64,000 nt of DNA from positions 260,468-324,467 of the forward strand of contig JAWAEV010000001.1 in assembly GCA_038891095.1 (NCBI GenBank). Reading direction: 5' to 3'. Source of the DNA: Candidatus Altiarchaeota archaeon. Lineage in GTDB: Archaea > Altiarchaeota > Altiarchaeia > IMC4 > QMZM01. Below are positions 32,158 through 40,279 of this stretch, piece by piece. The notes beneath the pieces are model-generated. The model did no database searches. It was given only the letters and a program-made list of their open reading frames with translations, and was not told the DNA's origin. Within the stretch, counting starts at the first letter, position 1, and every line of letters starts with the position of its first letter. Position numbers and translations under genes: made by a program.

Positions 32158-33211
32158 AAACATTAACTAACTTTTTTTTAATTTCACTTGGCTTGAAAAT
32201 TCCAACATTAGTTATGAATGCCGTAACAAATCTCTTTGGAGTTATGTCAAATGCAGGATTTCTTGCTTTTGCCCCTTTTGGGGCAATTCTTCTTTTTCCT
32301 AAATATAAAACCTCATCATCTGTTCTTTCTTCAATTTTTATTTCCTTGCCTGAATTGCAATTTTTATCAAAAGTTGTTAAAGGTGCAGCAACATAAAAGG
32401 GAATGGAATTTTCCTTTGCTAAAACTGCCTTCTCATATGTTCCAATTTTATTTGCAAAATCACCATTTATTGCAATCCTGTCTGCTCCAACAATGCATAG
32501 ATCAACTTCACCTTTCTGCATGAAATAACCTGCTGCATTATCAGCAATTATTGCATGTGGAATTCCCTCATTTATTAACTCCCAAGAAGTTAATTTTGCT
32601 CCTTGTAATCTTGGCCTTGTTTCATCAACCCAAACAAAAATTTTCTTTTTTGAATAGTGAGCTTCTCTTATCACAGCAAGAGCTGTGCCATGGTCAACAC
32701 ATCCTAAAGCACCTGCATTGCAATGAGTTAAAATTTTATCCCCATTCTTTATCAATTTATTTCCAAAAATTCCAATTTTTTTACAAGCAATCTCGATTTT
32801 TTTTGCATATTTCTTGCTAGAAATAATTGCAACTTTTTTTGCTTCATTCACAGATTTCGCTTTTTTTATTTTTTCTGTTATCTCATCAACAGCATGAAAA
32901 AGATCAAATGCTGTCGGCCTTGTGCTAATGAGAACTTTTTTTGCTTTTTCTAAATGCTCAAAAAATTTCTTCATATTTTCTCCTTGAAATTCTAATGCTG
33001 CCTGTGCCATTGAATAAGCAGATACTGCACCAATTGCTGGTGCCCCCCTTACTATCATATTTTTTATTGCTAATGCGGTCTTCCTGTGATTTTCTGATTT
33101 GTAAATTTCAAATTTTTCAGGCAATTTTCTTTGGTCAATAAGGAAAATAGTCTTGTTGGACATCCAAACTGTTTTATATTCTCTATGGCCTTCGCTAAAT
33201 CTTACTTTCAT
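32150..33211 (-). CDS. mtnA: S-methyl-5-thioribose-1-phosphate isomerase
   Basis: IDQRKLP, MIVRGAPAIG, LTHCNAG, ETRPRLQGA and NPAFDITP motifs. Confidence 0.92.
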   Translation of the reverse strand: MKVRFSEGHREYKTVWMSNKTIFLIDQRKLPEKFEIYKSENHRKTALAIKNMIVRGAPAIGAVSAYSMAQAALEFQGENMKKFFEHLEKAKKVLISTRPTAFDLFHAVDEITEKIKKAKSVNEAKKVAIISSKKYAKKIEIACKKIGIFGNKLIKNGDKILTHCNAGALGCVDHGTALAVIREAHYSKKKIFVWVDETRPRLQGAKLTSWELINEGIPHAIIADNAAGYFMQKGEVDLCIVGADRIAINGDFANKIGTYEKAVLAKENSIPFYVAAPLTTFDKNCNSGKEIKIEERTDDEVLYLGKRRIAPKGAKARNPAFDITPKRFVTAFITNVGIFKPSEIKKKLVNVFT

Positions 33212-33315
33212 TTTATAACTCAAATTTTTTTAATTTATATACTAAAATGTAAATTTTAATAATGATGGTTTTTCTAAAAATATGAACTGGGATTATAGAA
33301 TTCTAAACAGGAAAA

Positions 33316-33447
33316 ATGATATGCGACATCTGTGGTAAAACTGTTGATAAGGTATATGTATGCTCTGATTGCGGCTCTTTATTTTGTGTCAAATGTGGTA
33401 ATGTTGAGAAAAAACTCTGCAAAGATTGCGAAAGCTTAGAATTTTAA
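33316..33447 (+). CDS. Zinc-finger microprotein (4 x CxxC), missed by ORF track
   Basis: Manual translation MICDICGKTVDKVYVCSDCGSLFCVKCGNVEKKLCKDCESLEF. Confidence 0.8.
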   Translation: MICDICGKTVDKVYVCSDCGSLFCVKCGNVEKKLCKDCESLEF

Positions 33448-33490
33448 ATTTTTATTTTATTTTTATCAAATATTTTCTCTTTTATTATTA

Positions 33491-33709
33491 ATGGAAATAA
33501 AAGGTTTTCAAGAGTATAGAAAAAGGGAATTTTGTAATTCTGTTAAATGTCCAGTGCAATTGGAGTTGAATAAAACAAAAGAAAACTCAGAAGAATATGA
33601 AAAAATTAGAGATGAATGCAAAACAAACTGCAGATTTTCAGCAAGAGATTTTCATTATTGGTTGATTAACCATGGATACATTATTATTAAACCAAAAGAG
33701 GTGAAATAA
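33491..33709 (+). CDS. Small Cys/His-containing hypothetical protein
   Basis: EFCNSVKCPVQ...CKTNC...FHYWLINHGY; stop overlaps the lsrF start. Confidence 0.7.
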   Translation: MEIKGFQEYRKREFCNSVKCPVQLELNKTKENSEEYEKIRDECKTNCRFSARDFHYWLINHGYIIIKPKEVK

Positions 33710-34497
33710 TGGACTGGGGGATGAAAAATAGGTTGTCAAGGATAATAAAGCCTAAGGATAAGAGAACAGTTATGCTCGCTGTTGATCATGGATATTTTAT
33801 GGGGCCAACAACTGGTTTAGAAAATTTTGAAATTGTGAAAAAAATTTTACCTTATGCAGATGCCATAATGCTGACAAGAGGTGCTTTAAGGAATTATATT
33901 CAGCCAGAAGAAGATATACCAGTAGTATTGAGAGTTTCTGGCGGAACAAGCATAATAGGTAAGGAACTACTACATGAAGGTATAATAACCTCGATAAAAG
34001 ATGCTTTAAAACTGAATGTTTCTGGCTTAGCATTTTCTATAATGGTTGGTTCAGAATTTGAAAGAGATACCTTGTTAGGATTAGCAAAAATTGTTGATCT
34101 TGGCGAGGAATATGGAATTCCTGTAGTGGCAGTAACAGCAGTAGGGAAAGAATTAGTTAGAGATGCCCGTTACTTAGCATTAGCATCAAGAATTGCTGCT
34201 GAATTTGGTGCACATATTGTTAAGACATATTATTGTGAAAATTTTGAAAAAGTTGTTGATAGTTGCCCTGTGCCAATTGTTATTGCTGGTGGTAAAAAAA
34301 TTTCTGAGGAGGAAGCATTGAAGATGACTTATGATGCTATTCAGAAAGGTGCTTCTGGTGTAGATATGGGGAGAAACATCTTCCAATCAGAAAATCCAAA
34401 AGCGATGATTAAGGCAGTGAAAGCAATTGTTCATGAAAATTTCTCTGCAAAGGAAGCGATTGAAATGTTTAAGAAAGAAAAAGGGGAAACCAGATAA
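33709..34497 (+). CDS. lsrF: LsrF-like class I aldolase/thiolase (DhnA family)
   Basis: MDWGMKNRL, MLAVDHGYFMGPTTGLE, VKTYY and GVDMGRNIFQS motifs. Confidence 0.88.
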   Translation: MDWGMKNRLSRIIKPKDKRTVMLAVDHGYFMGPTTGLENFEIVKKILPYADAIMLTRGALRNYIQPEEDIPVVLRVSGGTSIIGKELLHEGIITSIKDALKLNVSGLAFSIMVGSEFERDTLLGLAKIVDLGEEYGIPVVAVTAVGKELVRDARYLALASRIAAEFGAHIVKTYYCENFEKVVDSCPVPIVIAGGKKISEEEALKMTYDAIQKGASGVDMGRNIFQSENPKAMIKAVKAIVHENFSAKEAIEMFKKEKGETR

Positions 34498-34563
34498 CAC
34501 AAGTTCGCTTTTAGCTCCAAAAAGGATTAAGAGAATAAAATGTTCGCTTAATAGTTGTTATGC
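34492..34563 (+). repeat. Degenerate attC/attI-like site at the array start
   Basis: AGATAAC (overlapping the lsrF stop) ... GTTATGC, with an internal direct repeat GTTCGCTT. Confidence 0.4.
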
Positions 34564-34897
34564 TCAATTGCGAGTCGCCCATAAACGAGATCGCCACCGA
34601 AATTCTTCTTTTGTTGCCTCGTTAAAATTCACAAAATGAAAAGGAAAAAACGAAATTGCTTCGCAAATCGTCTAAGAAAATTTTAACGAAATTTTTTCTT
34701 GTTCTTTACGAGAGAGTGCTGCCGTTACGTTTTTGATTCTTTTTTTCTGAAGAAAATAAGGTGGTTAAGAAAGGGGGTGTCGTTTCAAGTCGTTTTCAAC
34801 TTTATTAATACATTTATCAGGATTTTTTAATCTCGTGCTCCCAGAAGACACTTTACTTTTTAAGTCAAAAAAATATAATTAAAATGGAGGGATTATT

Positions 34898-36262
34898 ATG
34901 AAAAAATTATCATTTCTTTTATTGGCAACGGGTATGCTTTTAGTTGCTCAAAATTTCTCTGTACTTGCCGAAGAATCTCTATGGCCGCAAGGCGATTTTG
35001 ATTTAGTTTATCCTGTCTATAGAATGTATACTCCCTCAGATCCGGCACCAATAGATAAAGATTACAAAATTCTTTTTGCTTTTTCTCCGCTTTCAGTAAG
35101 GGATGGAAAAGTTTCTACAATTGTCACTCGTCGAACTCCTCTATCATATACTCTTGCCTCTCAACAATTTGATGGCGATGGCATTATCAAAATGGATGGC
35201 GTGTATGATAAAGAAACCGGGAAAATCAGCGGACAATATGAAATTAATTTACAGACTAAAAGTAGAGTAAGCAATTTAAATGCCGGACTACGTTATAGTG
35301 AAGGCTGGGTTGAACGGTCAGAAAGTGGTACTTTTCAAGGACAGGTGATAAAAGACCACGTGGTTTTAAATTTTGCCTGCAAAAAATCAAGTGGACAATA
35401 TTATCGGAAGTACAGAGACAATAAAGAAGAAAGCGGCTCAATAAGCAAGTGTACATATTTTTTCAATAAAGTAGCTTATCAGGTTATACCAATAGTAAAA
35501 TCAGAACCGGCAACTTACAAACAAGAACCCGCAGAAACACCTAAAAAACATGTTGATTCAGGTGTCAGAGTGGCTGGGATGACTGGTCAGTGCGATATTG
35601 AAATCGATGGAGTCAGACGTCCTCTTAAAATGGATGATGTTATTCCTGTTGACGCCCATATTATTACAGAAGAGGACAGCAAAATTATCCTTGCTTTTAC
35701 TGATATGAGCACTTTTGTGGTTGAACCTGAATCTCATATTGTTATAAGCGCTCCAGCTGAAAAAGAAAGCAAACTTAAATTAGTTGCCGGAAACATTTGG
35801 GCCAATATTAAAAAAATGATTAAAGATGGAACAATGGAGGTGGAAATGAATCAGGCGGTGGCAGGAATCAAAGGAACAACTTTTGTCTGCGAGGAAAAAG
35901 ACGGGAAATCAACCCTAAAAGTATTTGAAGGTGTGGTTGATTTTAAATCCAAGGCAAGCAGCGAGACGGTTCAGGTAAAAGGCGGAGAAAAAGTTGTGGC
36001 TGATAATAAAGGACTTTCGCCAGTCGAGAAATTTGATACATTTGAGGAAGTACAATCTTTAATGAAATTAAGAAATGAAGAAGATATTAATTGGGCAGAG
36101 GGCGAAGAAAAAGAAACACAGGATTTATCGGCAACTAAAAAACCAGAAATAACAAAAGAAAAAGCCTCTAATCAATGGCTGTTTATTGGAATAATTCTAA
36201 TTTTGGCACTAATAATAATATTAGTGGGATTAAAGATCGCTAGAAAAGCTAAAAGTAAATAA
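34898..36262 (+). CDS. Secreted FecR-domain protein with C-terminal TM anchor (cassette cargo)
   Basis: Signal peptide; FecR-like LKLVAGNIW..AVAGIKGTTF..LKVFEGVV; C-terminal hydrophobic helix plus basic tail; visibly more CpG-containing codons than the host genes. Confidence 0.8.
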   Translation: MKKLSFLLLATGMLLVAQNFSVLAEESLWPQGDFDLVYPVYRMYTPSDPAPIDKDYKILFAFSPLSVRDGKVSTIVTRRTPLSYTLASQQFDGDGIIKMDGVYDKETGKISGQYEINLQTKSRVSNLNAGLRYSEGWVERSESGTFQGQVIKDHVVLNFACKKSSGQYYRKYRDNKEESGSISKCTYFFNKVAYQVIPIVKSEPATYKQEPAETPKKHVDSGVRVAGMTGQCDIEIDGVRRPLKMDDVIPVDAHIITEEDSKIILAFTDMSTFVVEPESHIVISAPAEKESKLKLVAGNIWANIKKMIKDGTMEVEMNQAVAGIKGTTFVCEEKDGKSTLKVFEGVVDFKSKASSETVQVKGGEKVVADNKGLSPVEKFDTFEEVQSLMKLRNEEDINWAEGEEKETQDLSATKKPEITKEKASNQWLFIGIILILALIIILVGLKIARKAKSK

Positions 36263-36530
36263 AGAATTTATCGCCATAATGATATGACTAAAATCGAAGA
36301 AATTTTAAAATTTAAAATCAAGCCGAAAGAAAAGGATATAGAATTTAAGCCGCGAGAACTCTATAAACCTCAACGCTTTGTCTCCTAAATGACTAATCGC
36401 AAAATCAATATAAAGTTCGACAAATTCGGGGTTTTCCTGTGAGGCGTATTCCAGAGACTCTATCAGATGTCCCTTGGTCACTAGCAGATGCTAATTATTC
36501 AAAACCCAACGATTCCCTCAACAAACCTGT

Positions 36531-36619
36531 ACATAACAGTGGATAAACGGTCGACTCTCGCATAGTCTCACCCAAATGCTCGCTGACATTCGCACTTCTT
36601 ATGTCCGCAGCTGTTAGGC
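36531..36619 (+). repeat. attC-like recombination site
   Basis: R'' ACATAAC ... R' GTTAGGC, 89 bp; imperfect palindrome; internal CCCAAAT..CTTC shared with the next site. Confidence 0.7.
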
Positions 36620-36662
36620 GAAATGCCCAAACCCGACTTTGAAAATCGGAGGTAATAGAACT

Positions 36663-37274
36663 ATGGAAACAAAATTAGACCTGACAAAGGAATACAAAAC
36701 CTATTATACAGCAAGAACAAACCCTAATGTAGTTGAATTTGGTGAAATTCCATTTTTGACTATTGAGGGCAAAGGTGAACCCGCTGGAGAAGTTTTTACA
36801 AAAGCAGTTGAAGCTTTGTATCCTCTTGCCTATAGTGTCAAAAATATCTCTAAAAAGCAGGGTAAAGATTTTAGTGTCCCAAAATTAGAGGGATTATGGT
36901 GGGTAGAGCCTGATAGACCTGCTTTGGAGGTGCCTCGCGAAGAATGGCGCTGGAAACTTCTTATTCGTATGCCTGATTTTGTTACTTCAGATATGGTAGA
37001 GAAGGCAAAAGAAGAGGTTTTCAAAAAGAAAGGAATAACTCTGGTTAAGGAAATCAAGTTCGAAAAGATTAAGGAAGGTAAATGCATTCAGATATTGCAC
37101 ATAGGGCCATATTCAACAGAGCCAGAGTCGTTATCAAAAATGCGAAAATTGATGGAACAGAAAAATCTTGTTGAAAATGGTCTTCACCATGAAATCTATC
37201 TTTCTGACCCACGAAAGGTTGCTCCAGAAAAGATGAAAACTATTTTAAGGCAACCAGTGAAAGAAAGAGGTTAG
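36663..37274 (+). CDS. GyrI-like small-molecule-binding protein (cassette cargo)
   Basis: LEGLWW, WKLLIRMP, QILHIGPY and HHEIYLSDPRK..KTILRQPV; GGAGGT RBS before the ATG at 36663. Confidence 0.9.
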   Translation: METKLDLTKEYKTYYTARTNPNVVEFGEIPFLTIEGKGEPAGEVFTKAVEALYPLAYSVKNISKKQGKDFSVPKLEGLWWVEPDRPALEVPREEWRWKLLIRMPDFVTSDMVEKAKEEVFKKKGITLVKEIKFEKIKEGKCIQILHIGPYSTEPESLSKMRKLMEQKNLVENGLHHEIYLSDPRKVAPEKMKTILRQPVKERG

Positions 37275-37279
37275 AAAAA

Positions 37280-37966
37280 ATGCAATTTAACAACATCTTA
37301 AAAAAACTAAAATCCCTATCTAATCCCAGAGCCGTTGAAGGCATGGTTAAATACGGGATTACCGCTGAGAGAGCTTATGGCGTGTCAATTCCGAATTTAA
37401 GAAAGATTGCCAAAGAAATAGGAAAAGACCATAAACTTGCTCAACAACTTTGGAAATTAAATATTCGAGAAACTCGAATACTTGCAAGTATGATTGATGA
37501 CCCTGTATTAGTGACCGAGAAGCAAATGGAAAAATGGGTAAAGGAGTTTGATTACTGGGAAATCTGTGACCAGATCTGTCAAAATCTTTTTACTTACTCT
37601 AAATTTGCTTATCAAAAAGCCATAGAATGGAGCGAAAGAGACGAAGAATTCGTAAAAAGGGCAGGGTTTGCTTTAATGGCTTGGTTAGCTTTTAAAGATA
37701 AGAAAGCAAAAGATGAGCAATTTGAAGTATTCTTTCCAATCATAAAAAGAGAATCTACTGATGATAGAATCCTTGTTAAGAAAGCTGTGAATTGGGCATT
37801 AAGACAGATTGGGAAACGAAATATTGCCTTGAATACAAAGGCAATTGAAACTGCGAAAGAGATTCAAAAGATAGAATCTAAAAGTGCTAAATGGATTGCT
37901 CAAGATGCAGTCAAGGAATTAACGAGCAATGCAATCCAAGAAAGATTGAAAGAAAGAGGTAAATAA
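37280..37966 (+). CDS. DNA alkylation repair protein (AlkD-like HEAT repeat; cassette cargo)
   Basis: YGVSIPNLRKIAK, WEICD, EFVKRAGF and VKKAVNWALRQIGKR motifs. Confidence 0.9.
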   Translation: MQFNNILKKLKSLSNPRAVEGMVKYGITAERAYGVSIPNLRKIAKEIGKDHKLAQQLWKLNIRETRILASMIDDPVLVTEKQMEKWVKEFDYWEICDQICQNLFTYSKFAYQKAIEWSERDEEFVKRAGFALMAWLAFKDKKAKDEQFEVFFPIIKRESTDDRILVKKAVNWALRQIGKRNIALNTKAIETAKEIQKIESKSAKWIAQDAVKELTSNAIQERLKERGK

Positions 37967-38020
37967 TATGGATGGACTTGGGCACTCTGCAGTGCTTCGA
38001 ACCTTGCCCCTATCGGGGTC

Positions 38021-38102
38021 GCTTAACACAGCATATACGACTCACTTCGTTCGCCCAAATTTCGGCTACGCCGAAACTTCGTATATGACGGAGCCGTTAT
38101 GT
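38021..38102 (+). repeat. attC-like recombination site
   Basis: R'' GCTTAAC ... R' GTTATGT, 82 bp; perfect arms CATATACGA/TCGTATATG and inner hairpin TTTCGGC-TAC-GCCGAAA. Confidence 0.82.
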
Positions 38103-38245
38103 GAAATTCGAAAACCTGCCTCTCACAAAAAGAGATCGTAAATTATGACTATTTTGTTGCATTCGTAAGTTTATATAAGGAAGAGGGCACTAGATTTAAT
38201 ATTAAAAGTTCTAATAAATTTATAAGAGCTGATTTTACTTTTCTC

Positions 38246-38584
38246 ATGAAAACTTGGATTAAATGCGGTATGATGGGATTAACAATTTGGGTTTTACTCT
38301 TTTTAGCATTTTATATTAGTGATTATCTAGTAAAATGTTCATTACCAACAAATGACTCTGGGTCTCCATTAGTAGGTAGTAGCTGTTGGAATTCTATTCA
38401 GGAGTTAATATTAATGATTTTTGCAGTTTTAAGTTTTCCTTTTCTTTTAGTTGGGGCAAATCCGAATATGACTACTGTTGGTCCTTTTCGTGTTATGCTT
38501 TTTTGGATTGGTAGCATGATATCTTTTGTTTTGTGGGGAATGTTAACTGGATGGATAATTGAAAAAATACTTGAGGCAAAGTAA
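38246..38584 (+). CDS. Hypothetical membrane protein (cassette cargo)
   Basis: Three hydrophobic segments; stop codon lies within AAGTAAC, an R''-like sequence. Confidence 0.7.
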   Translation: MKTWIKCGMMGLTIWVLLFLAFYISDYLVKCSLPTNDSGSPLVGSSCWNSIQELILMIFAVLSFPFLLVGANPNMTTVGPFRVMLFWIGSMISFVLWGMLTGWIIEKILEAK

Positions 38585-38656
38585 CAGTAGGTTTAAATGT
38601 AGTCGTTTATCTTTACATTAGCATTTTAATTTCAATTTTCATATAATTTTCTTGCT

Positions 38657-39655
38657 ATGAAAGTTGCAGTTTACTATAGCAACAATGATATTCGCATAGA
38701 AGAAAGACCAATTCCAAAAATTAGCAAAGGTGAAATTTTACTTAAAGTTATTTCTTCAGGAATTTGTGGTAGTGATGTAATGGAATGGTACCGCATTAAG
38801 GAAGCTCCGAAAGTTTTAGGACATGAAGTTACTGGCATAGTTGAAAAAGTTGCTAAGGATGTGAAAAAATTTAAAGTTGGTGATAGAATTTTTGTGACGC
38901 ATCATGTTCCTTGTAATAAATGCAAATATTGTCTTCAAGGAGAAGAGACTGTTTGCAAAACTCTAAGAAGAACAAATTTTTATCCTGGTGGCTTTTCTCA
39001 ATACATAAGAATTCCAAAAATAAATGTAGAAAAAGGCACTTTTTTATTGCCAAGAGAAATTTCATTTGACGAAGGAACTTTTATTGAGCCATTAGCTTGT
39101 GTTATTCGCAGCCAAAGAAAAGCAGGTATAGAAAAAGGTCATAATGTGCTTATAATTGGCTCAGGAGTTTCAGGTTTATTACATATACAGTTAGCTAAAT
39201 TGAAGAAAGCAAAGAAAATTGCTGTTATTGACATTAATCCTTACCGCCTTAAAATTGCAAAAAAATTCGGAGCAAATTTTACAGCAAACGCAAATGAGAA
39301 TTTAGATGAGAAATTTGATAGAGTTATTGTTTGCACTTCTGCAAAGGAAGCAATAGAGAAATCATTTAAATTTGTTGATAATGCTGGAACAATTTTATTT
39401 TTTGCTCCAACAAGTCCAGAGAGCAAGATAGAAATGCCATTTAATGAGCTATGGTTTAAATGTGTTAAAATTATAAGTTCATATGCTGCTGCAGAAAAAG
39501 ACATTAAAGAGGCGATAAAAATTTTGAAGGAAAAGAAGATGAATTTAAAAGGAATGATTACGCATAAACTACCATTACAAGAAACATTAGAAGGCTTTAA
39601 AATTGTTTCTAAAGCTGATAGATCCATGAAAGTTATTATAAAACCACAAGAGTAA
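38657..39655 (+). CDS. Zinc-dependent alcohol/polyol dehydrogenase (MDR family)
   Basis: GICGSD, LGHE, CNKCKYC...C and EPLAC motifs. Confidence 0.93.
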   Translation: MKVAVYYSNNDIRIEERPIPKISKGEILLKVISSGICGSDVMEWYRIKEAPKVLGHEVTGIVEKVAKDVKKFKVGDRIFVTHHVPCNKCKYCLQGEETVCKTLRRTNFYPGGFSQYIRIPKINVEKGTFLLPREISFDEGTFIEPLACVIRSQRKAGIEKGHNVLIIGSGVSGLLHIQLAKLKKAKKIAVIDINPYRLKIAKKFGANFTANANENLDEKFDRVIVCTSAKEAIEKSFKFVDNAGTILFFAPTSPESKIEMPFNELWFKCVKIISSYAAAEKDIKEAIKILKEKKMNLKGMITHKLPLQETLEGFKIVSKADRSMKVIIKPQE

Positions 39656-39688
39656 ATTTTTATTTCTAAAATTTAATATCTATGTGAA

Positions 39689-40279
39689 ATGGATAGCAAA
39701 ACTCAAAGCAACAAAGTTATGATAGGAGATTATCTTGGCACAATAGAAGAGTTCCTATTAGGTGAAGGTACTTATGCTGAAAATGGAGAAATTTTTGCTG
39801 CAAGAATTGGAGAGAAAGTTGTTGATAAAGAAAGACATATTGTTAAAGTTATCGGTAAAAAACCTGTTGAATTACAAGTAGGACAAATTGTTTTTGGAAA
39901 AATAATTGATGTGAAAAAAAATTTCATAACTGTGACAATAAAAAAAATTCAAGGTTTTAATGAGGAGTTAGATATAAATGCAAATTTATATGTTGCAAAT
40001 ATTTCAGATAGCTATGTTAACAAACCAGAGGATATGTTTGGGATTGGTGATATAATAAAGGCAAGAGTTATAAAAATTGATATTGATCTTGTAGATATTT
40101 CAACAAAAGGCGATTTTGGAGTTGTAAAAGCATTCTGTAAGAAATGTAGATCTCAATTGGTGAAATCTGAAAAATTCAAAGAACGATTAGTTTGCGAAAG
40201 CTGCGGCAGTAAAGAAGTGAGAAAAATTGCTAGTGATTATGGAAATGTAGTAGAAACGACAACTATGATACATGTCTAA
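39689..40279 (+). CDS. csl4: Exosome complex RNA-binding protein Csl4
   Basis: EEFLLGEGTY, S1 domain and GVVKAFCKKC..CESCG...RKIA. Confidence 0.92.
   Translation: MDSKTQSNKVMIGDYLGTIEEFLLGEGTYAENGEIFAARIGEKVVDKERHIVKVIGKKPVELQVGQIVFGKIIDVKKNFITVTIKKIQGFNEELDINANLYVANISDSYVNKPEDMFGIGDIIKARVIKIDIDLVDISTKGDFGVVKAFCKKCRSQLVKSEKFKERLVCESCGSKEVRKIASDYGNVVETTTMIHV

Follow-up and report, generated by a model that had tools for sequence, protein, structure and literature searches.

Bacteria gather ready-made genes, in the textbook view, by way of integrons, whose cassettes are joined at attC sites that are bounded by inverted cores with the consensus RYYYAAC in the R'' box and GTTRRRY in the R' box. 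The extrahelical bases of a folded attC site mark the strand that is recombined and are contacted by an insertion near patch III that is specific to the integron integrase IntI. Recombination of a folded single-stranded hairpin by Xer recombinases is a known precedent, provided by integrative mobile elements exploiting Xer (IMEX) such as the CTX phage. A locus of this general kind is described here from a Candidatus Altiarchaeota archaeon (assembly GCA_038891095.1, contig JAWAEV010000001.1), in a stretch of 64,000 nucleotides (positions 260,468 to 324,467 of the forward strand) that is referred to as the window and numbered from its first letter. Between a gene for a DeoC/LacD-family aldolase ('lsrF') and one for a Zn-dependent alcohol dehydrogenase (ADH), positions 34485-38102 likely form a small integron-like platform, with an IntI-related recombinase lacking the IntI-specific insertion as its probable enzyme. 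A first-pass annotation of the same letters had as its headline that an archaeal chromosome carries a cassette array of integron type with no integrase, and this holds on the strength of the cassette anatomy, a break of homology at a GTT core and a natural allele without the cassettes. This integron-like array probably belongs to a variant system; membership of the canonical integrons is not established, because the likely cognate recombinase type is without the IntI-specific insertion.

The closest described systems are the attC clusters that have no integron integrase (CALINs), defined as two or more attC sites that share a strand, are separated by less than 4 kb and have no IntI nearby (Cury 2016, PMC4889954), and the archaeal integrons, mostly without intI, which were reported in 75 of 6718 genomes together with six IntIs carrying the specific domain (Ghaly 2022, Sci Adv, PMC9668308). 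In the latter study an IntI was counted only if it matched the IntI-specific profile, and among bacteria the nearest relatives of those archaeal enzymes were atypical integrases of Spirochaetota. The insertion 'is not fully conserved' in an integron-like subgroup (Smyshlyaev et al. 2021). A non-exhaustive literature search returned no paper linking attC-type arrays to an insertion-less integrase or describing the three-way junction reported below. The window resembles attC sites and CALINs (PMC4889954) in its inverted RYYYAAC/GTTRRRY-type cores, in an imperfect palindrome placed 3' of a compact, promoterless and co-oriented open reading frame (ORF), in the tandem arrangement of arrays and in units that are cut inside GTT. 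With its two sites 1490 bp apart on the + strand and no integrase, it fits the CALIN definition, conditional on the sites counting as attC. However, its site family differs from attC in being without extrahelical bases and in having a conserved three-way junction as its central part, where attC is variable; unlike a CALIN, the window retains a landing site though the integrase gene is gone, and unlike in integrons, the recombinases linked to this site family lack the IntI-specific insertion. The archaeal integrons of Ghaly 2022 likewise comprise cassette arrays in metagenome-assembled genomes and attI sites beside integrase genes, and a Spirochaetia platform also belongs to the present family; the difference is that sites occur here in 33 of the 61 genomes of one phylum and that the platform enzymes are without the insertion.

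Each cassette of the window ends in an attC-like site. Three motifs common to the 3' halves of the two sites were used as a pattern and scanned over one genome per species, which gave at least 119 loci, a good share of them possibly due to chance by a rough estimate. Among 80 pattern loci examined, 57 also carry the 5' half, including the TAAC core that is absent from the pattern, and 23 do not. The covariance model R1 was made from 55 of the 57 foreign sites, excluding those of the window and two that are cut by the ends of their loci (L062 and L117). R1 scores site 1 (36514-36622, core 36531-36619) at 55.6 bits (E 2.2e-10, full model length) and site 2 (38004-38105, core 38021-38102) at 78.3 bits (E 1.3e-15), both on the + strand only, and with filters off it scores nothing else in the window or in the whole assembly. 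The cores of site 1 are ACATAAC for R'' (36531-36537, 6/7 to the consensus) and GTTAGGC for R' (36613-36619, 7/7), and those of site 2 are GCTTAAC (38021-38027, 7/7) and GTTATGT (38096-38102, 6/7), the latter being the right-hand crossover point. Site 2 is 84-90% identical to sites in metagenome-assembled genomes (MAGs) of ANME-1, Nitrosotalea and WOR-3, among others. Site 1 is somewhat decayed, with substitutions in the long L stem that leave mismatches and G-T pairs relative to the family consensus.

The relatedness of the two sites is supported by a global alignment with soft scoring (z 7.7; reached by none of 1000 shuffles and none of 3000 genomic windows), and strict local alignment gave no significance, since 174 of 1000 shuffles reach the score. 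Nor was strict local alignment of either site with its own reverse complement significant. The self-complementarity of site 1 is not above that of shuffled sequences (946 of 1000 reach it), a repeat-finding run on the locus failed to single out the two sites, and an Rfam scan of 33000-40000 returned no match at E up to 1. Two repeats bounded by TAAC and GTT cores had been described at these positions in the first-pass annotation and are confirmed there. Their relatedness is upheld by the global alignment. Two further TAAC cores, at 34492-34498 and 38579-38585, had been read as additional boundaries and are not sites (no R1 match at E<1 with filters off); similarly, the further copies of the repeat that had been proposed for a search were sought in the genome with blastn-short and R1, and none was found beyond sites 1 and 2.

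Beyond the window, R1 gave 136 matches in 100 pattern loci (among the matches listed) and 31 in 25 further sources, and the family occurs, again among the matches listed, at 88 other loci across bacteria and archaea. Archaeal hosts include ANME-1, Alkanophaga, Archaeoglobi, Methanoperedens, Methanocellales and Thermoplasmatota, as well as Heimdallarchaeota, Nitrosotalea, Altarchaeum, Huberarchaeum and Woesearchaeota; bacterial hosts include WOR-3, Aminicenantes, Cloacimonadota, Dehalococcoidia, Thermotogota, Spirochaetia, candidate-phyla bacteria and an isolate, Desulfothermus okinawensis. Co-oriented arrays of 4-7 sites are found at L054, L067, L051, L114, L092, L060, L149 and L177. The 33 site-bearing genomes of the archaeal phylum include 16 of the 21 of the window's own family. 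In a complete 1.39-Mb chromosome of the same order (G026), one array of four R1 sites (277-281 kb) is accompanied by singletons at no fewer than six distant places, so that single cassettes seem to be scattered round the chromosome as well as gathered in arrays.

The anatomy of the sites is described from 138 members of the family. An outer stem has a near-invariant inner 4 bp of TAAC/GTTA, with conservation of 88-99% at the TAAC positions and 96-100% at those of GTTA. It is followed by an asymmetric internal loop with a 5' side of 1 nt (124/138 sites) and a 3' side of 5 nt (109/138), by an 11-bp L stem that is free of bulges in 134 sites, and by an inner part that combines a three-way junction, in which CCCAAAT and ACTTC are invariant, with two hairpins that vary; loops of the CTTCG type occur commonly in the alignment of the family. 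RNAalifold on the 55 aligned sites returned 14 pairs, 9 of them with compensatory changes. Over the 138 sites, pairing holds in 85.1% of the cells, a level that none of 500 shuffles reaches, and in 70.3% after shuffling; 21 of 23 pairs have changed on both sides, and sliding the partner columns lowers the pairing to 26-43%. The initial reading had been tied to hairpins with extrahelical bases. These are lacking from the family, which has a fixed 1-nt/5-nt asymmetric loop instead, and the fold itself is kept by compensatory change. By analogy with integrons, the sites may react as folded single strands.

The way in which consecutive sites fit one another gives the logic of the cassettes. An integron cassette extends from one G|TT crossover to the next, and the outer R'' letters of a site are therefore expected to match the first letters of its own cassette. 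In 49 adjacent co-oriented pairs of sites, the 5 nt outside the TAAC of one site pair with the 5 nt after the GTTA of the site upstream, with a mean of 4.20 of 5 and perfect complementarity in 28 pairs, compared with 2.57 for the site's own tail, 2.57 for the reverse and 2.40 for random pairs (Wilcoxon p 1e-7). This result is not built into the model, because R1 leaves those columns unpaired. Some cases of low complementarity, for example in L067, have weaker intervening sites that were skipped by the 1e-7 threshold. From the pairing with the upstream tail it follows that each unit is cut within the GTTA core, in the manner of integrons. The units so defined have a median of 910 bp, with 68 nt before the ORF and 51 nt after it at the median, and in 47 of the 49 the longest ORF lies on the strand of the site.

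The left boundary of the array in the window is defined by homology to a foreign locus. Positions 34557-34708 are 83% identical to a Methanosarcinales MAG (L151, 7156-7309), where this sequence directly follows an R1 site. The homology begins exactly at GTTATGC (34557), upstream of which the Methanosarcinales sequence is the body of a site and the window has unrelated sequence. Because homology breaks at a GTT core, cassette 1 is placed at 34558-36613 (2056 bp, + strand; a 340-nt leader, an ORF for a FecR-domain protein, a 270-nt spacer and site 1) and cassette 2 at 36614-38096 (1483 bp, + strand; genes for a GyrI-like and an AlkD-like protein, followed by site 2). Three cassettes had been claimed at the outset, of which only two are bounded; a 112-aa ORF beyond them directly follows the landing site in the allele without cassettes and is not accompanied by a site.

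The array starts at an attI-like landing site (34485-34563, + strand) composed of two direct repeats, TTCGCTTTT (34504-34512) and TTCGCTTAATAG (34543-34554), followed by the crossover core GTTATGC (34557-34563). Positions 34485-34556 align with a stretch of a Woesearchaeota MAG (L067) that lies between the start codon of a divergent recombinase gene and the first cassette, and the alignment includes both direct repeats and a 19-nt exact match. A related stretch adjoins the divergent recombinase gene of G009, a genome of the window's own family. More widely, GTTA with a 5/5 complementary tail is found 66-175 nt from the recombinase gene in five of the six recombinase-bearing pattern loci, and among four platforms examined in the same phylum the landing junction matches at 5/5 in two and at 4/5 in one more. 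A second, tandem type of landing site, described by eye, holds a palindrome with a 2-7 nt gap and has its crossover 4-6 nt outside it; a Xer/dif-type site, for comparison, has two arms of ~11 bp around a central region of 6-8 bp where strand exchange takes place. On the evidence of these alignments, the window has kept an attI-like site without the enzyme gene. Insertion at a secondary site, the scenario originally put forward, is not borne out, as the landing point is attI-like and homologous to the recombinase-linked site of L067.

The allele without cassettes comes from the environment. Four runs of one hot-spring study contain the stretch and were examined as Logan contigs; run depths are contig depths and were used only for what is bridged or absent. 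In run X3, a contig with a depth of 8.63 joins 34556 directly to 38096, skipping 3539 nt that correspond exactly to both cassettes, and the joint contains six letters common to both cores (GTTATG). Its flanks are ~99% identical to the window (6 differences in 861 nt), and an assembly chimera is unlikely given that only six letters are shared. Other contigs of X3 and of X4 end at 34561 and 34568, or begin at 38096 and continue through the 112-aa ORF, and the depth of the FecR cassette in these two runs is 0-1 compared with ~14.5 in the flanks. A second X3 contig carries a landing sequence like that of L067 in front of 38096. The comparison of the lsrF-ADH junction for an empty site, suggested with the first-pass annotation, can thus be answered at two distances: lsrF and ADH are adjacent in the distant relatives G039 and G023, and the X3 allele lacks exactly both cassettes.

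Junctions between lsrF and ADH hold other genes in other relatives. A gene for a 36-aa Cys-rich peptide is present in two genomes of one genus, AlkD with a flavodoxin/4Fe-4S-like gene in one relative, and a small antitoxin-toxin-like pair with a membrane protein in another. No R1 site was found in the lsrF-ADH loci of six relatives.

The candidate enzymes are found beside arrays in other genomes. Tyrosine recombinase genes adjoin arrays in ten pattern loci and in L177-L180, L191, L030, L033 and L185. The best families of these platform enzymes are XerA_Arch and TIGR02249, mostly below the cut-offs, with one (L123) just clearing that of XerA_Arch; TIGR02249 is matched in two pieces. The distance from the K-box to HxLRH is 56-59 aa in the platform enzymes compared with 100 aa in two canonical IntIs; the L067 enzyme has 13 aa where VchIntIA has 57, and its best solved match is XerA (5hxy, 136 bits). 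The L130 recombinase was dropped from the evidence on the insertion, as its ORF is internally deleted or contains an unknown residue. In a tree of 28 sequences, the enzymes linked to tandem-type landing sites form one clade (95/88) and those of the L067/G009/G057 type another (100/100), and both types are placed together with the pair of canonical IntIs (81/86) and separately from other Xer-like proteins. Within the phylum, none of the 61 genomes has an IntI over the TIGR02249 cut-off, and 29 have Xer-like matches in two pieces. A Spirochaetia chromosome that encodes both kinds of enzyme has nine R1 matches (E<1e-3) within 20 kb beside the insertion-less one, in an array that continues into L132, and no R1 site in the 20 kb around its canonical IntI.

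Just upstream of a canonical intI in Spirochaetia, L189 (4800-9004) holds a run of near-identical repeat units of ~579 bp, each with a TATAAC motif, which are probably a duplicated set of cassettes of a different attC type. About ten Xer-like genes of the archaeal phylum lie 140-800 nt from the start of a contig in the same orientation, at least one of them (L033) with an R1 site at the contig edge, which hints that a repeat or variable region upstream of these genes breaks assemblies.

The mechanism that would account for the locus can be outlined from this anatomy. An attI-like site after the lsrF stop codon is followed by the FecR cassette and then by the cassette with the GyrI-like and AlkD genes, each ending in an attC-like site of 85-90 nt. 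The anatomy and the natural empty allele show that cassettes come and go through site-specific recombination at a point within GTTA, and on this basis the newest cassette (FecR) was inserted at the landing site ahead of the older one. The enzyme would probably be an IntI-related tyrosine recombinase without the ~40-aa IntI-specific insertion, a type proposed because such genes adjoin platforms in relatives, one of them in the same family. Its gene may have been lost, leaving a CALIN-like relic with a landing site, or the enzyme may act in trans.

Several observations weigh against a platform of this kind in the window, or limit how far it can be taken. No tyrosine recombinase was found in the window, as first reported, nor in the whole 93.65%-complete assembly. 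Folding of both sites by minimum free energy (MFE), on both strands, is no better than that of shuffled sequences (z +0.11 to -1.29); extrahelical bases are absent, the L stem of 134 of the 138 family sites having no extra base, and with 58 G-T against 53 A-C the L stem gives no RNA-like or folded-strand signal. The window's own tail complementarity is modest, at 3/5 (by eye) in one instance and 4/5 in the other, which compares the outer nucleotides of the R'' of site 2 with those after the GTTA of site 1. The empty allele is one Logan contig and not reads, the shorter side of its joint is 25 nt, it stems from the same study as the probable source of the assembly, and the X3 strain may never have held the cassettes. 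In the relative G014, AlkD stands at the lsrF-ADH junction without sites, so that the outcome named at the start as speaking against the array, relatives carrying the same genes without the repeats, was seen for this one gene in one relative. AlkD itself looks native to the phylum, with homologues of 50-65% identity in 20 of the 61 genomes. Support for the link between the platform enzymes and IntI is modest and comes from a tree with only two canonical IntIs and a midpoint root. Co-occurrence of sites and recombinases in the 61 genomes is weak by a hand tally (both in 18, recombinase only in 11, sites only in 15, neither in 17). Finally, the attI sites of archaea were described as adjoining the integrase gene, downstream of IntIs with the specific domain, and as semi-conserved across archaeal phyla (PMC9668308), and the data of Ghaly 2022 may already cover the site family, the landing site or the MAG of the window.

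These points have to be weighed together with three other explanations of the locus. An ordinary CALIN, made of plain attC sites served by a canonical IntI in trans, with the insertion-less enzymes as housekeeping Xer proteins or passengers, would agree with core motifs, crossover inside GTT and cassette anatomy that are all of integron type, and a pair of sites that share a strand within 4 kb and have no IntI is what the published definition describes (Cury 2016, PMC4889954). Moreover, eight of nine archaeal attCs were substrates of IntI1 in E. coli (Ghaly 2022, PMC9668308), and a canonical IntI over the TIGR02249 cut-off is present in two of ten array-bearing genomes (none of a first five, two of a further five). 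However, the distribution of enzymes and sites makes this explanation rather improbable: no IntI passes the cut-off in any of the 61 phylum genomes, yet 33 have sites, no R1 match lies in the stretches around either of the two canonical IntIs, and nine adjoin the insertion-less enzyme that is encoded on the chromosome of one of them. A matching landing junction adjoins insertion-less genes in 8 of 10 platforms, and the sites are without the extrahelical bases of attC. A simple Xer/dif system shares with the platform its recombinases, which are simple Xer-like proteins with no extra domains, and differs in other respects: no dif-like 11-6-11 site was seen by eye, the crossover lies in the GTTA core outside the palindrome, single-ORF cassettes stand in arrays, and the platform enzymes group with IntI and not with the remaining Xer-like proteins that these genomes encode.

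Alternatively, the block may be a relic that was inherited or swapped by homologous recombination through its flanks, without present-day site-specific recombination, X3 being an older or different strain. The lack of a recombinase in the assembly, the decay of site 1 (55.6 bits) and the 15 phylum genomes that have sites and no detectable recombinase (by hand tally) are in keeping with it, and contigs cannot show circles or rates. However, the alleles differ exactly between two GTTATG cores while their flanks are ~99% identical, which implies a recent core-to-core event in the population, whoever supplied the enzyme, and on balance such a relic is unlikely, if less so than an ordinary CALIN. 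The repeats could also be terminators, REP/MITE-type repeats or a structured RNA with TAAC and GTT ends by chance, given that the junction is conserved, that CTTCG-type loops are common and that the MFE folds in the window are unremarkable. Like repetitive extragenic palindromes (REP), the bacterial interspersed mosaic elements (BIME) and miniature inverted-repeat transposable elements (MITE), the sites are imperfect palindromes, short and GC-rich, that stand between the genes of an AT-rich genome; unlike these, they are not dispersed, with only two copies in 958 kb and both at one locus, the units that they bound are genes, and the boundaries are explained without target duplications. Such an origin has no place for the upstream-tail complementarity or for a deletion exactly at the cores, and with no Rfam match and no excess of G-U over A-C pairs it is hardly credible. 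The integron-like platform with an insertion-less enzyme remains by some way the reading that we favour. A broader proposal, that a sister lineage of integron integrases without the IntI insertion runs a parallel and very widespread cassette system of which the window would be a decayed platform that still displays cassette-level polymorphism in nature, is held more tentatively, with a chance that we would put slightly short of even. Such a system might have its own attC-like sites, with a conserved three-way junction, an asymmetric loop and no extrahelical bases, and at least two types of landing site, and might be present in half of the phylum's genomes and in archaea (ANME-1, Methanoperedens, Thermoplasmatota, Heimdallarchaeota and DPANN) and bacteria (WOR-3, Dehalococcoidia, Spirochaetia and candidate phyla) alike, a picture that we regard as being just as tentative.

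In an archaeal genome of ~1 Mb, the locus offers a clean natural example in which a landing site with its two cassettes can be set beside a sister allele that lacks exactly these. Standard criteria demand the IntI-specific domain; if the proposal is true, a variant integrase has been missed and its arrays have been filed as orphan CALINs or gone unseen. Current integron counts in archaea and uncultured bacteria would then be too low, and 'orphan' CALINs would have an overlooked enzyme. That enzyme would work without a domain thought to be essential, on sites without the extrahelical bases which that domain reads, and experiments on living intermediates could address how integron integrases arose from Xer-like ancestors.

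The four co-oriented accessory ORFs first noticed between lsrF and the Zn-dehydrogenase gene were confirmed by ORF and Pfam analysis. The FecR-domain protein of cassette 1 (34898-36262, + strand; Pfam PF04773) has an N-terminal hydrophobic segment and a C-terminal membrane anchor. Cassette 2 encodes the GyrI-like protein (36639/36663-37274, + strand; Pfam PF06445), with an ATG at 36663 behind a GGAGGT motif, and the AlkD-like DNA_alkylation protein (37280-37966, + strand; Pfam PF08713). The 112-aa membrane-like ORF (38246-38584, + strand), which comes first behind the landing site when the cassettes are absent, has no Pfam family, no tblastn match in the loci of six relatives and no R1 site 3' of it. 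Regarding the origin of the cargo, GyrI-like proteins occur in 5 and FecR proteins in 4 of the 61 phylum genomes (window included), and the nearest Atlas clusters of both are bacterial, which is a lead and no proof of transfer. Cross-domain acquisition is possible for these two genes from such sequence comparisons; the claim of a route for cross-domain gene acquisition, made for the array from the outset, is not shown: AlkD is typical of the phylum (20 of the 61 genomes), and the bacterial clusters of GyrI-like and FecR are its only lead.

The window is archaeal DNA of ~31% G+C, from an assembly of 958,546 bp in 15 contigs, and G+C rises to 0.35-0.38 across the lsrF-ADH insert. On the left, the resident lsrF gene (33709-34497, + strand; Pfam PF01791, E 1.2e-25) has orthologues in six relatives at 71-85% identity, and the attI-like site adjoins the stop codon of the gene (34495-34497). 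The resident ADH gene on the right (38657-39655, + strand) has the Pfam domains ADH_N and ADH_zinc_N. In a Methanocellales MAG (L100, 4107-5285), a Zn-dehydrogenase gene that is 55% identical to the ADH of the window starts ~50 nt beyond the final R1 site in a small array, and it is as similar to that ADH as are the orthologues in the window's own order. This placement could be a coincidence, a recurrent insertion point or a sign of a mobile ADH gene. Further neighbours in the window include genes for an exosome Csl4-like protein, an IF-2B family protein and a DUF434/DUF5616 protein (Pfam). The tyrosine recombinases missing from the assembly include the Xer-type enzyme that was matched in all 14 control genomes; its gene may lie in the missing 6%, or the small genome may do without it. 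In cassette 1, the first ~150 nt of the leader are non-coding, with no ORF of at least 60 aa, and could act as a promoter or regulatory element, or be a small RNA that travels with the cassette. Between the FecR stop codon and site 1, an open frame of 61 codons without a start codon (36305-36490, - strand) may be the remnant of an older gene within the cassette.

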